Program-made: the position numbers and the translations under genes | The notes under the pieces: generated by a model | What the model was told of the DNA's origin: nothing | The model's database searches: none | What the model saw: only the letters and a program-made list of their open reading frames with translations | Source of the DNA: Octopus vulgaris | Taxonomy: Eukaryota | Assembly (NCBI GenBank): GCA_951406725.2 | Contig: OX597820.1 | Location: forward strand, 128,216,001-128,280,000 | Direction: 5' to 3' | Length of the DNA stretch: 64,000 bases | Part shown: positions 6,151 to 43,252 of the stretch, piece by piece | How the letters are laid out: the number at the start of each line of letters is the position of its first letter | Numbering within the stretch: position 1 is the first letter of the stretch

Positions 6151-6418
6151 CCGAAGGTGCTTTCCTCCAGGTTGTTTTATTATTACCCACAAGGGGCGAA
6201 CATAGATGGGACAATACAATCTGATGATGGGGTCAGACACACGAATGGGTTTTTACAATAAATCGAATTTAAAAATTTTCATGAATTACAATAAATGGAC
6301 AGAAATCGAATGATGGGACAGACCGGAAGACATTACGGGTGGAGTGGGTGCGGGTTTAGCTCGGACCCCACGAGCCCCGCCTCCCCACTGATACTTTTGG
6401 TTGCGCTTGGTATTACAT

Positions 6419-9400
6419 TTATGTTGTATCTTTCACTCGCAACTTTCGTGCTACATCCTTCCATCGTTCTTCATACACTCTCCTAGTCAGGCATATTCTC
6501 TCCAGCCCTATCTTCCTTTTCAGGTGAAAGATGAAATAATTCATCAAACCAGGGCCGGAGATGAACTTGCCTGACTGTAAACCTTTCATTCTCGTCTTCC
6601 ATATCACCTCTTTCGCAATTGCTACTACGACGAGAAAACGAAACTTACCTTCATTCACGAGGAAATCCGGTGGGTCAATTTTTGTAATCGACTCAGTCGA
6701 CAGCTGTACTCTTCGTGTACCTGACAACAGCTGTTCGGCATAAACCCACACCTCAGACACGTCCGGACAATGAACAATAGCGTGCGGGACGGTTTCCCTA
6801 TCCCGCCCGCATCTTGGACATATCGGACTGTCTTGGCCACCGTGCCTTGCGAGTTTATCCCGAACAGGTAGAGCTCCTCTGTAGCATTGCCATGCCAGAG
6901 ACTTCTGGAAGTTGTCCAGTGTCCTCGGCTTGAACGTACGTCGGAACAGACTGGCCAGCTGATTATCGTCGAGACCTAGGGTTTCCCCCAAGGTATCTTC
7001 ACATTCCGCCTCTACCAACCCTCTATAGAAGAATGTGGTGGAACCCCCACCGCAGGCGTTGCCCGAGCGACGGAATAGCAGGAGAGCCTTGCGACACTCC
7101 GTGTACCAAGTACCAAGTTTCGATCTACGATTCAGCCAGGTTTCCCATCCACCGAAACTAGTGAACTTGGGAAACATCAGTTTTGCTAGCGAAGACCACA
7201 CCCGTTCACCATCCAGGTAGAGCCACAGATGTCTTAACCTCAGCGCATGTCTGCGCATCATCAGCCAAGGCATCCCTAGCCCACCCTTTAACGGTTGTTG
7301 ACAGCAAGTAGAGCGTTTCACAAGTGGTTTCCCGCCCTTCCACAAGAAGTAGAAGAGCTGTCTTTCCAACTTGATCAACCACGAATCAGGGCAAGGAACG
7401 ACGGAAAGGCGGTAGGTGATAACCGATGCGATAAACACATTGGCCACCTCCGCCCTCCCTTTCAGGGATAGCCACCGCCAAGACCAGGTCTTGGCTACTG
7501 CAGCCACCTTGCTCGTTACCTCGCCCCAATTCTTCTCTATTTGGAGGTCTGGACCGAACCAGACCCCTAGCAGTTTAATCGGACCCTCCGTCCAACGTCC
7601 CACGACGCTGTCAGGAGGCATCGACTTGCCTCTCCAGGTGCCGAGTTGCAAGCCGACTGACTTTTCGCGATTAACTTTTGCTCCTGTCACCGTCTCGTAA
7701 ACCTCTATGGCCTTGCCTACTTTACATAGGTGATCCATTTCGGTTACGATGATGGTGATGTCATCCGCGTACGCTGACACTGATTTTCCATTACCTGGCT
7801 GTCTCGGGATGCCGCTCAGTTTTCGCAGTAATGGCTCAAGAGCCATCACGTACAAAAGCGGGGAGAGCGGACACCCTTGACGAACCGAGCGTTTGATTTT
7901 GAACGGCTTCGACAAGAAGCCGTTCACCCGAACTACCGAGTCGATGTTATCGTAAATTTGGATAATCCACCTGAGGAAGCCAAGGCTCAGCCCGAACTGT
8001 GCCAGGGCAGATACCAGGTAACGATGGTCGACCCTATCAAAAACTTTAGATTGGTCTAAATGGACCAGTGCCCCACCCTTGCCAGAATCACTATTAAACC
8101 CCTCTATAGTGTACCGCATTAGATGGAGATTATCCTGAATGGATCTGCCCGGAACGGCACATGTCTGTGCCTCTCCGATCAGACCATCCGCGACACGCGC
8201 CAATCTTTTCGATAACACTTTGGCCAAAATCTTCAACTCTGTGTTTAGCAGAGTGATGGGCCTGAAATTATCAATGCACTCCCCCTTGCTCGGGTCCTTT
8301 CTGACGAGAGTCACTACTCCCCGGCGCACAGATCTGGGTATAAGCCCGTTCTGCTGCCAGTTCGCATAGACCTCCGCCAGTAGGTGCCCGAACAAGTCTG
8401 GCATACTCTTATATAACTCATAGGGTAGACCATCCAAACCCGGCGCCTTGCCCGCGCCGCAGTCCGCCATTGCCTCAACCACCTCCTCAGGCGTGATTGG
8501 CCCTTCACAGCCCTCCGCATCTCGCCCCGATAAGCGCGGCAGCCCGTCGAGTAGGTCCGTAAAGGCCCTCCTCCTATCCAGTCCGCCGCACTCACCGAAA
8601 AGCTGAGCGAAGTGCTCCTGAAAGGCCTCACACATCTCCTCGGGTTCGTTTATCAACTCACCTTGTTGGTTCGTCAAAGATCGAATCGTGGCATCGTTAC
8701 CATGCTGAGCTTCCACCACTCGGGCCCATCTCACGGCGTTGATTCCTTCACATCCCATATGGCGGATTCTAGCCCTGACAATGCAGCCCATGTGTTTGGC
8801 CTCGAGGTGCTGGTTTAACACCAGTCTCTTGGACGCCACCTGAGCCGCAGAGCCAGTTTTCATGGCTTCCTCTAATTCCTTAACTAGAGTAGTTTCCCTT
8901 CTAGCCTCTCTAGCCACTACTCCTATGCTATATCTAATAGACTCAAACTTGATGGCTCGTTTGAGGGCGTACCACCATTTGTTATTAATGATGGTACCAG
9001 ATAGTGCCCTCTGAATTATATTCCTAATCCGGTCTTTGTACTCCTTAATCGCCAAAAGGGACGTATTAAGTTTCCAGTAACCGGATCCTCTATTTTTAAC
9101 CTTATCTATGTCAAGCTTACAAGTGACCATTTTATGATCACTGTAGCTGATCGGGTAAAACTGTGGACACTTAGCTATTTTACTGTCTACTTTTCTAATT
9201 AGTATTCTATCTAAATATGACCTGGAAGATCCGTCGCTGTTTGACCATGTCCACAATGGAGCGTTCGGAAATTCCAGCCTATAAGGATCTGCTAGCTCAA
9301 AGCGGCTTAGCAGTTCCATGAAGCCACTGTTGCCTTTTCTATCTGGACACGAGCCAACATAATCTACATCCGCTTTGCAAATTGTGTTAAAGTCTCCTAG

Positions 9401-9814
9401 CACCACTAATGAATGCGAAGTACCAAGAAAGTTTTCTAGTTCACGAAAATAATCACTTTGCCCTGTATGGTTGGGTGCGTAAATTGCAACCAGTCTGATA
9501 ACTTTACCATTACTGAACGTCAAATCCATGACGACCAGCCTACCTTCTGGATCTGCAAAAATTAACTTTTTCTCAGAAACCCGGTTTCTTTTTAATAGGA
9601 CCAACACCCCACTCCCGCCTGTAGGACTGCCAGGAGAGAAAAAACTCTCGTAGCCGTCAAACAGCGGGAGTAGACCTCTTGGCCTCTCTAACCGGGTTTC
9701 TGTAGCAACAATAACATCTAAATTACGCGACCTGATATCATGCAGGAAGCGACCTTGCTTCCAGCCTGCTCCCAGGCCGCGCACATTCAAACAACCAACA
9801 TAAATGTAATCCAT
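6419..9814 (-). CDS. ORF2: APE endonuclease + reverse transcriptase + C-terminal Cys/His zinc motif (Tx1/L1 clade), 1131 aa, intact
   Basis: Motifs CLNVRGL, GDFN, YLDRIL, SDH, WKLNTSLL, KAPGLDG, RPITLLN, RQGCPLSP, YADD, GGLG, CPRC..ETVPHAIVHC. Confidence 0.97.
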   Translation of the reverse strand: MDYIYVGCLNVRGLGAGWKQGRFLHDIRSRNLDVIVATETRLERPRGLLPLFDGYESFFSPGSPTGGSGVLVLLKRNRVSEKKLIFADPEGRLVVMDLTFSNGKVIRLVAIYAPNHTGQSDYFRELENFLGTSHSLVVLGDFNTICKADVDYVGSCPDRKGNSGFMELLSRFELADPYRLEFPNAPLWTWSNSDGSSRSYLDRILIRKVDSKIAKCPQFYPISYSDHKMVTCKLDIDKVKNRGSGYWKLNTSLLAIKEYKDRIRNIIQRALSGTIINNKWWYALKRAIKFESIRYSIGVVAREARRETTLVKELEEAMKTGSAAQVASKRLVLNQHLEAKHMGCIVRARIRHMGCEGINAVRWARVVEAQHGNDATIRSLTNQQGELINEPEEMCEAFQEHFAQLFGECGGLDRRRAFTDLLDGLPRLSGRDAEGCEGPITPEEVVEAMADCGAGKAPGLDGLPYELYKSMPDLFGHLLAEVYANWQQNGLIPRSVRRGVVTLVRKDPSKGECIDNFRPITLLNTELKILAKVLSKRLARVADGLIGEAQTCAVPGRSIQDNLHLMRYTIEGFNSDSGKGGALVHLDQSKVFDRVDHRYLVSALAQFGLSLGFLRWIIQIYDNIDSVVRVNGFLSKPFKIKRSVRQGCPLSPLLYVMALEPLLRKLSGIPRQPGNGKSVSAYADDITIIVTEMDHLCKVGKAIEVYETVTGAKVNREKSVGLQLGTWRGKSMPPDSVVGRWTEGPIKLLGVWFGPDLQIEKNWGEVTSKVAAVAKTWSWRWLSLKGRAEVANVFIASVITYRLSVVPCPDSWLIKLERQLFYFLWKGGKPLVKRSTCCQQPLKGGLGMPWLMMRRHALRLRHLWLYLDGERVWSSLAKLMFPKFTSFGGWETWLNRRSKLGTWYTECRKALLLFRRSGNACGGGSTTFFYRGLVEAECEDTLGETLGLDDNQLASLFRRTFKPRTLDNFQKSLAWQCYRGALPVRDKLARHGGQDSPICPRCGRDRETVPHAIVHCPDVSEVWVYAEQLLSGTRRVQLSTESITKIDPPDFLVNEGKFRFLVVVAIAKEVIWKTRMKGLQSGKFISGPGLMNYFIFHLKRKIGLERICLTRRVYEERWKDVARKLRVKDTT

Positions 9815-41970: not shown

Positions 41971-43024
41971 TGTGTGTGTATGCGTGGAGGCAGGTGTTAT
42001 ATTTACATGGTTGTTTCCATGACATCTTAAATTGTCATAATAAACGTTTGAGGTCGTGTTACTCTTTTGCTTGTTTGTTTAGATTTGTTTTATTTTCTGT
42101 CCCCTCTATCTACTTCTATTTCGTTCTGGTTAATTATCCTTTTCATGTCTAATTGTTTAATACGATATGCTCTTTTCATTATATTATGAAAGATTTTATA
42201 TATATATTATTCAGTAAACACAATATATGTTTTTATGTATTACTATTAGTTTCATGTGCTGAGAACATGCCAAACATTGCTTTATAACACGTCTGGTGCC
42301 CCAACACAATCAACAGACACGGCCCGCACAGCATACAAGATGGATTACTTTATTCGTTGATCTTACCATCACAGTACAGTTTACTAATATAGAGTCAAAA
42401 ATATCTCCCAATTCGGAAGTAATGCATATTAACCGCTACTTTGATTCACCCTGTATGTATACATATCTATGCATGTGTTTACATATATATATATATATAT
42501 ATATACATAGTGTGTGTGTACGTGTGTTTTGTTTGTAGTATTACTTTCATCAGTTTATAGCGCCTTAACTTTTTATGTGTAGTTGTTTGTTCCCTATATT
42601 TTCGGTGTAGTCAATGTACGAGTTTTGTTATTTTATTTCTGAGATCTATTATTTAATAAATCTCAAAAGTGTGGCTGGGTAACATGTGCGATGCTTTCGC
42701 CAATTGTTTTGGAGGCATATATTGTTTCAAGGAGACACTGATGCCCTCTCCATTTTCCTACCTTTTAACCCAGTAGATTACCCGCGATATGGCAGGAAGA
42801 GAAAGAGAGAGAGAGAGAGAGAGAGAGAGAGGGGGGGTTGCAACGACAAGATTTGTACTTATTTTCAGCTGATTCTACTGAGGTAACATGAAATACAGGC
42901 ATTGATCAAGGAGACAACGCGCCAGCTCGTTCAGGAGTTGAACCCACAGTAGAGTGATCATAAATGGAACACTCTAACCAATGCAGCGCAAGCTTTCACA
43001 AATTAATATTATATTATCACATAA

Positions 43025-43252
43025 AGTGGCGACCTGACAGAATCGTTAGTACGCCGGGCAAAATGCTTAGTGGTATTTCGTCCGCTGATATGTTCTGAGT
43101 TCAAATTCCGCCGAGGTCGACTTTGCCTTTCATCCTTTCGGGGTCGATTAAATAAGTACTAGTTACGCACTGGGGTCGATATAATTGATTTAATCCGTTT
43201 GTCCTTGTTTGTCCTCTCTGTGTTTAACCCCTCGTGGGTAGTAAAGATATAG
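43025..43252 (+). mobile_element. SINE S2 with Tx1-type 3' tail
   Basis: tRNA-like head GGCGACCTGACAGAATCGTTAG..GAGTTCAAATTCC; tail TTGTTTGTCCTCTCTGTGTTTAACCCCTCGTGGGTAGTAAAGATAT. Confidence 0.8.

Follow-up and report, generated by a model that had tools for sequence, protein, structure and literature searches.

Can the open reading frame 2 (ORF2) protein of an animal long interspersed element (LINE) of the L1/Tx1 type select its RNA template by a defined 3'-terminal sequence, and is the same sequence used by elements that have no ORF2 of their own? This question is raised by a 64,000-nucleotide (nt) stretch of the Octopus vulgaris genome (GenBank assembly GCA_951406725.2, contig OX597820.1, positions 128,216,001 to 128,280,000 of the forward strand), hereafter called the window, in which positions are counted from the first letter. 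A 3' tail of ~45 nt is common to four element ends in the window: those of a LINE, of two elements, A and B, that contain ORF1 sequence and lack ORF2, and of a copy of a family of short interspersed elements (SINEs). Judged from the sequence, the best reading of these ends appears to be tail-directed mobilization by an L1/Tx1-type ORF2.

The pattern CCCCWN{1,2}TGGGTA has four matches on the two strands of the window, one per element end (LINE, 6196-6184, minus; A, 11400-11389, minus; B, 32574-32562, minus; SINE, 43228-43240, plus); in 100 shuffles of the window, the mean number of matches was 0.01 and the maximum was 1. Since the pattern was derived from the four ends themselves, a motif-free scan was run as well, in which the last 70 nt of each element were compared with 5112 tiles on both strands. 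With any of the four as query, the highest-ranking non-self matches were the remaining three ends (scores of 38-66, against 30-34 for the next best), and each of the six pairs of ends was more similar than 1000 of 1000 dinucleotide shuffles. A sequence-only reading of this DNA had located the four 3' ends at these places and had noted the lack of a long poly(A), and both observations are confirmed. The longest A run 3' of the motif is 4, 7, 3 and 3 nt in the LINE, A, B and the SINE, respectively, and the 7-nt run at element A belongs to the target DNA, not to the element.

The most informative of the four ends is that of element B (32551-34244, minus strand, 1694 nt), which consists of a 5' untranslated region (UTR), ORF1 from 34068, a short 3' UTR and the tail (32597-32551). 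B is flanked by a perfect 19-nt target-site duplication (3' copy 32532-32550, minus; 5' copy 34263-34245), and its empty site is found in a neighboring tandem unit near 34743-34725, which together make both ends of B exact. Because the flanks of B are 98.8-99.6% identical to the neighboring unit and the duplication is perfect, a decayed poly(A) at B is unlikely. The 3' ends of B and of the SINE both lie exactly 11 nt past GGGTA, without poly(A), and the LINE end at 6173 is compatible with the same register. The target of B is a tandemly duplicated unit of ~480 nt with an inverted copy (34245-35034 and 32294-32550).

The tail is better conserved between the LINE and B than the DNA of their ORF1. 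In the tail, 35 of 45 columns are identical (21 of the last 25), whereas ORF1 DNA is 50% identical over 283 codons and the best of its 805 windows of 45 columns reaches 31/45, none exceeding 31; the tail figure comes from an optimized gapped alignment and the ORF1 figure from a fixed codon alignment, a bias that slightly favors the tail. The 3' UTR upstream of the tail is only marginally similar between the LINE and B (28 of 500 shuffles were equally good), and the SINE has the tail in common with the LINE but not the upstream 3' UTR. Among the elements, the tails are 70-78% alike and not near-identical. Parts or all of the region 6100-12700 are present in 20 public sequencing runs from three coded organisms, and no RNA data set is listed among them. 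In contigs from these runs, the depth summed at the tail (6197) amounts to 348k, 68k, 275k and 407 in X1, X3, X13 and X2, and to 82k, 19k, 43k and 111 in the next bin upstream, i.e., about 4-6 times lower. Contig depth is not copy number, and this difference indicates that more sequences carry the tail than the neighboring LINE DNA.

The LINE itself (6173-11365, minus strand, 5193 nt, its ends set by empty-site joints in contigs) has both ORFs open and uninterrupted. ORF1 (9829-11139, minus) encodes 436 amino acids and ORF2 (6419-9814, minus) 1131 amino acids with an APE-type endonuclease, a reverse transcriptase, zf-RVT and a C-terminal CCHC-type zinc motif, the catalytic motifs being present; the tail (6173-6220, minus) forms the last part of a 246-nt 3' UTR. 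This copy has no target-site duplication (blunt or 1-2 nt). The closest named relative of ORF2 is an Argonauta hians protein (59% identity), and its best match among solved structures is human L1 ORF2p (E 4e-65, residues 3-867), the R2 proteins following at E 1e-25. The core of ORF1, which is near-identical to P0209, a protein named as Octopus sinensis, has a weak zf-CCHC match (E 0.07) and is homologous to the RRM-RRM-CCHC core of B (E 9e-49). Such an ORF1 is of Type I (RRM plus CCHC), which rather than the Transposase_22 type has been described for the Tx1 clade (PMC5203782); since plant L1s can have it too, this feature by itself does not identify Tx1. In a quick, midpoint-rooted tree of 93 reverse transcriptase rows built without labeled Tx1 or L1 references, the window's lineage comprises 14 rows (support 100) within a weakly supported group of 64 rows (support 88) that includes relatives holding U2 or U1 small nuclear RNA (snRNA) sequence. 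RNA sequences were found at related loci, namely U2 at 6 and 5S at 1 of 20, and U1 at 1 of 5 others, and U2 targeting has been reported for the Tx1 family Keno (PMC4494074). Of the description "autonomous Tx1 LINE" given in the sequence-only reading, the open ORFs and the L1/Tx1 type are thus secure, and membership in the Tx1 clade in the strict sense is likely.

Elements A and B had been taken for two ORF1-only retroposons; they do hold ORF1 sequence and lack ORF2, a tblastn search with ORF2 having found no match in either, but they are two copies of one family and neither is intact. Element A (11392-12559, minus strand, 1168 nt) is bounded by an 11-nt duplication (3' copy 11381-11391, minus; 5' copy 12570-12560); in an alignment of 1073 nt, A and B share 77% identity. 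The RRM-RRM-CCHC core of A is deleted at ~12099, where A is without the ~550 nt (B 33810-33262) that hold both RRMs and the knuckle. Loose contig ends at 12098 and 12100 continue into B 33810-33788 (21/23) and 33286-33262 (25/25), so that other copies run on into B sequence at the gap and A is a deleted copy of the same family. The ORF1 of B has two RRMs, one CCHC knuckle, a Pro-rich linker and a C-terminal domain, with a frameshift after the knuckle; its core has a predicted fold with a mean predicted local distance difference test score of 85.6, and the best matches are tandem-RRM proteins. In P0208 (Octopus sinensis, 54-55% identical to the core of B) the knuckle and the linker are in one frame, and the lesions of A and B therefore look copy-specific. 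A is covered in four of four runs, and A and B, at different sites, have the same ORF2-less 3' structure; among the contigs listed, none connects the ORF1 end to the tail with 31 nt of overlap at both. The LINE has the word AGGTAAGT at the end of ORF1 (9816-9823, minus), just before the ORF2 ATG, and the same word followed by ATG is present in A (11537) and B (32709), these being three of its four occurrences in the window.

As to the ancestry of this family, the ORF1 of B is 36% identical to that of the LINE and stands on another branch, grouping with other octopod proteins, and between the C-terminal domains of the two ORF1 proteins no likeness was detectable. The family would therefore most likely be derived from a sister LINE. 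A word-indexed search with the ORF1 of B gave no relatives and an exhaustive one gave 325, eight of the ten looked up being named octopod proteins. That A could be part of the 5' end of the LINE is ruled out by its own duplication and the target DNA between the two. The word AGGTAAGT resembles a 5' splice site and may control the expression of ORF1 and ORF2; it also stands just before ORF2 in one of the two relative families with 38-39% identity, that of the L082/L092 type (L082, L083 and L092), and not in that of L081.

The SINE-family sequence with the shared tail (43022-43251, plus; tail ~43205-43251) may be a 5'-truncated copy nested in another copy, or it may form the left part of a dimer. 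Directly 3' of it lies a SINE half that ends in a different tail at ~43420, and copies of a 15-nt repeat stand on both sides of the unit 43026-43420 (at 43011 and 43421); this repeat is a candidate duplication of the dimer. A 12-nt repeat of 43072-43083 follows the tail (43252-43263, plus) and may be a target-site duplication, and it is also ordinary internal SINE sequence. The family is short, non-coding and dispersed. Its designation as a tRNA-SINE is not confirmed: ARAGORN and Rfam returned no tRNA match, and what is present is a box A-like word in two of six copies, the box B pattern being found in none of the six, although inspection by eye does show a word like it. Most SINE copies have tails of one or two other kinds (43252-43646, 44610-45022, 60921-61115, 62140-62573 and 5460-5659), and several of them stand beside ATT/TAA repeats.

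The common register of B and the SINE, the absence of poly(A) at a young and precise insertion, the conservation of the tail above that of ORF1 and the SINE having the tail without the upstream 3' UTR are the grounds for preferring tail-directed mobilization, and the retention in A and B of the word at the end of the LINE ORF1 and the following ATG is counted for it as well. We infer that an octopod lineage of L1/Tx1-type LINEs would carry out target-primed reverse transcription through recognition of the 3'-terminal ~45 nt, with priming at a fixed point ~11 nt past GGGTA and without copying of poly(A). Such recognition by an ORF2 protein of the lineage, with priming at one set position, seems to us somewhat more probable than not. 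In a sister LINE, ORF2 would have been lost from just behind its start codon onward, and the element would persist as the ORF1-only family of A and B, which keeps the tail and would borrow ORF2 in trans; a SINE of the RNA polymerase III (pol III) type would have gained the tail by template switching and would have been inserted through it at least once. The driver would be a member of this LINE lineage, not necessarily of the family of the copy in the window, and may belong to a sister family. A wider picture, in which an animal L1/Tx1 lineage is stringent and independent of poly(A), with one tail serving several LINE families that have diverged, an ORF1-only parasite family of high abundance and a SINE subfamily that exchanged the tail of another LINE for this one, all with a shared target preference, is a tentative extension that we hold slightly more likely to fail than to stand.

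A different account of the same ends is that any A-rich or polyadenylated terminus suffices for priming by ORF2 and that the tail is a signal for 3'-end formation or polyadenylation, shared by A and B by descent. Directly after GGGT, three of the four ends have AATAAA (LINE and B) or AGTAAA (SINE), and 3'-end formation could thus account for part of the tail conservation. However, B ends 5 nt past AATAAA, closer than the usual 10-30 nt between this signal and the cleavage site, the conservation reaches ~30 nt upstream of the AATAAA word, and B, a young insertion whose ends are exact, has no A tract. Relaxed recognition of this kind we therefore consider improbable, even though SINEU, linked to Tx1-Mar in crocodilians, ends in poly(A), no LINE with the 3' end of SINEU-1 having been found (PMC4494074), and even though RNA structure in the octopus tail is unsupported. 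The latter point concerns the small CCC/GGG hairpin that the sequence-only reading had assigned to each end. It can be drawn, with three C-G pairs and -3.8 kcal/mol, but none of the three pairs varies among the four sequences (and invariant pairs cannot show covariation), the folding z-scores of eight tail fragments (0.00 to -1.67) give no energetic support, and the terminal C run is the main partner of GGG in two of the four ends only (B and the SINE); three C runs are possible partners of GGG, also in a pseudoknot. As the recognized element, the hairpin is thus unsupported by energy, covariation or preferred pairing. Neutral common ancestry or chance, by which the ends would be alike without function, is highly improbable: some 3' likeness is expected from the probable descent of A and B from a LINE of the same lineage, but conservation is higher in the tail than in coding DNA, the tail is also found on a SINE whose body is unrelated, and chance is excluded.

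Two further alternatives are compatible with tail-directed mobilization and concern its reach. The LINE and the A/B family may share a functional tail while the tail of the SINE is an internal relic in a dimer that moves through its other tail by another LINE. The profile of the SINE has 21 matches in the window, 13 of which reach the 3' region (model position at least 200), and the shared tail is present on one of these 13, the other 12 ending in another tail, for which a different partner LINE is likely. The tailed half directly abuts a half with the other tail inside the 15-nt repeats, and the 12-nt "duplication" is internal SINE sequence as well. On the other side, the junction is in the 11-nt register of B, the dimer most simply arose from a tail-primed insertion, and a monomer that was inserted first and hit later would give the same picture; we regard the relic as a real possibility that we doubt somewhat more than we credit. 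That the very LINE family of the window supplies ORF2 to all three kinds of elements is rather unlikely: it is the only intact tailed LINE in the window and was inserted next to A in one repeat, but its ORF1 is 36% identical to that of B, its copy is without a duplication as opposed to 11 and 19 nt in A and B, the tails are not near-identical, and 80 L1-Tx1 consensus families, 13 of them recently active, are annotated in Octopus vulgaris (PMC13282606). Several of the results already given, namely the AATAAA words, the unsupported hairpin, the rarity of the tail among the SINE copies and the distance between the ORF1 of B and of the LINE, weigh against the preferred tail-directed reading, and so do the following. 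Element A ends at GGGTA, where its tail overlaps the duplication, short of the common register; the duplications are unequal (0-2, 11, 19 and 12 nt in the LINE, A, B and the SINE); the contig overlay shows no pile-up of ends, and no loose contig end lies at a tail among the 24 listed of 5756 loose-end rows; in run X1 the depth over the reverse transcriptase domain reaches 291k, near that at the tail, so that other LINE families could supply the tail depth; and the evidence base is four ends in one window. Of the sequence-only proposal of a tail-recognizing ORF2 that mobilizes ORF1-only elements and a SINE, what stands is that it offers the best reading, and the identity of the driver, recognition of the hairpin, the tail as the mobilized end of the SINE family and its terminal position throughout the genome go beyond what the four ends show.

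The novelty seen in such a set was overstated, because L1-clade tail pairs, ORF1-only LINEs and Tx1-mobilized SINEs have all been published. L1-clade pairs with shared tails are described for monocots and a green alga (PMC3472496), i.e., LINE1-1_ZM with ZmSINE2 and ZmSINE3 in maize and sorghum and L1-1_CR with SINEX-3_CR in Chlamydomonas (PMC3472496, PMC3747384). As in the octopus set, the LINE of these pairs has a conserved 3' end of ~45-50 nt in common with the SINE; in contrast, compensatory changes are seen in the hairpin of the monocot tail, whereas the octopus set is from an animal, has no supported structure and includes an ORF1-only family with the tail. The same survey counts 3 L1-clade pairs among 58 SINE/LINE tail pairs, all from plants or a green alga, its table listing none for Tx1 or animal L1, and it leaves to assays whether the L1 ancestor was stringent or relaxed (PMC3472496, PMC3747384). 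Mobilization of SINEs by Tx1 has been proposed in crocodilians for SINEU with Tx1-Mar (PMC4494074), which resembles our case in that a Tx1-type LINE is the proposed driver, insertion is into a non-autonomous DNA transposon and the targets show duplications, deletions or no change. SINEU differs in being linked to its LINE by target preference and in having a poly(A) end and snRNA heads, while the octopus elements are linked by a shared tail without poly(A). The ORF1-only non-autonomous LINEs HAL1 (L1), HeT-A (Jockey) and Ag-Sponge (CR1) (PMC5786205, PMC5753468) keep the 5' UTR, ORF1 and the 3' end, have lost ORF2 and are multi-copy, like A and B, from which they are distinguished by the Tx1-type RRM-RRM-CCHC ORF1 of the latter, its lack of poly(A) and its 36% identity to a neighboring LINE. 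The L2 LINEs ZfL2-1, ZfL2-2 and UnaL2, in which ORF2 recognizes the 3' tail, would work in the mode proposed here; for them, binding and stem-loop dependence come from experiment (PMC4176376), and the octopus set is known from sequence alone, with its stem-loop unsupported.

In sharing a tail with non-autonomous partners, the set would behave like a stringent LINE system, the stem-loop of such systems being the feature that energy and compensatory changes in four sequences do not bear out. In the literature searched, we found neither this tail nor an animal Tx1 pair with a shared tail described, and the combination in an animal Tx1-type lineage appears to be undescribed, though the repeat databases Repbase, Dfam and SINEBase may already list the families. 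Each ingredient has a precedent; if the reading is true, this Tx1 partnership, defined by its tail, would be the first of its kind for animals in that literature and a test case for a stringent L1 ancestor. With both ORFs intact and three natural variants of the tail, the Tx1-type element would allow direct assays of the question in animals, and it could help to find the LINEs that drive octopus SINEs. These account for ~11.6% of the O. vulgaris genome, and their recently active families are mostly unclassified (PMC13282606). The octopus SINEs OK, OR1 and OR2 (cited in PMC4758252 and PMC4824008), compared here by description only, likewise have pol III box-like words, and the partners recorded for bivalve SINEs are CR1, CR1-Zenon, L2 and Nimb.

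In the comparison of duplications and target sites suggested in the sequence-only reading, the duplications differ in length and the LINE and element A lie ~15 nt apart in one copy of a host repeat. The 3' part of this repeat occupies 5705-6172 (minus), with a hairpin and then CTAG|T, and its 5' part 12571-13096 (minus), with an A|TC start at 13096; from these end features we take the repeat (13096-5705) to be Helitron-like. Empty-site joints from 6169, 6172 or 6173 to 12560, with 4-11 letters between, are present in contigs of runs X1, X3 and X13, which means that the flanks on both sides are parts of a single abundant repeat that received the LINE and A in separate insertions. The 3' part also carries a decayed fragment of a further ORF1 (6153-5902, minus; 33-35% identical to the ORF1 of the LINE and of B), which other copies of the repeat skip (joints from 5893 to 12560). 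The proximity of the LINE and A fits a shared endonuclease preference, and the site is possibly an insertion hotspot; of the four target sites available, those of the LINE and A are in one repeat copy and those of B and the SINE are in other repeats. Preference for a target sequence is common in the Tx1 clade without being obligatory. The sites (6172, 12570, 34263 and 43072) loosely follow A-R-Y|R at the 5' edge of the duplication, a post hoc hint only.

Beyond the window, an ORF2 profile matched 80 loci in metagenome_contigs and 49 in genome_contigs, nearly all 23-44% identical, and none in viral_contigs. The tail motif and a tail profile had no matches across these 129 loci, and the tail is thus not detectably conserved at 23-44% ORF2 identity; a degenerate tail pattern had no matches in metagenome_contigs or viral_contigs either, which is uninformative because these collections need not contain octopus DNA. 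Distant relatives of ORF2 (L007, L009, L011, L015, L016, L018, L019 and L122; 27-30%) adjoin U2, 5S or U1 sequence, as in target-specific Tx1 families. In a genome bin labeled as bacterial (L081-L120, L123 and L129), relatives of the LINE with 38-39% ORF2 identity form head-to-tail arrays, which are evidently host DNA and are possibly telomeric or self-targeting. In three loci tested, the units are ~6.4-6.6 kb long and 98-99.9% alike, and no RNA gene lies between units in the four loci scanned.

Within the window, the 5' UTR of the LINE may be a relic of a 3' UTR: it resembles the 3' UTR of the LINE (2 of 500 shuffles were equally good) but is unlike the 3' UTRs of A and B (102 and 376 of 500, respectively), and at 11215-11200 (minus) it has a C6/G5 hairpin resembling the word in the tail. 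An old rearranged fragment of a related ORF2 lies at 52555-54006 (minus), with 37-67% amino acid identity in pieces, and has no tail in the window. The window also contains a reverse transcriptase-coding element of 706 amino acids (37825-39945, plus), which we take to be Penelope-like, a second decayed copy of it (16124-17043, minus), a fragment of a Tc1/mariner-type transposase (20111-20845, minus) and an array of 45-nt units (56471-57355) that match themselves on the opposite strand.

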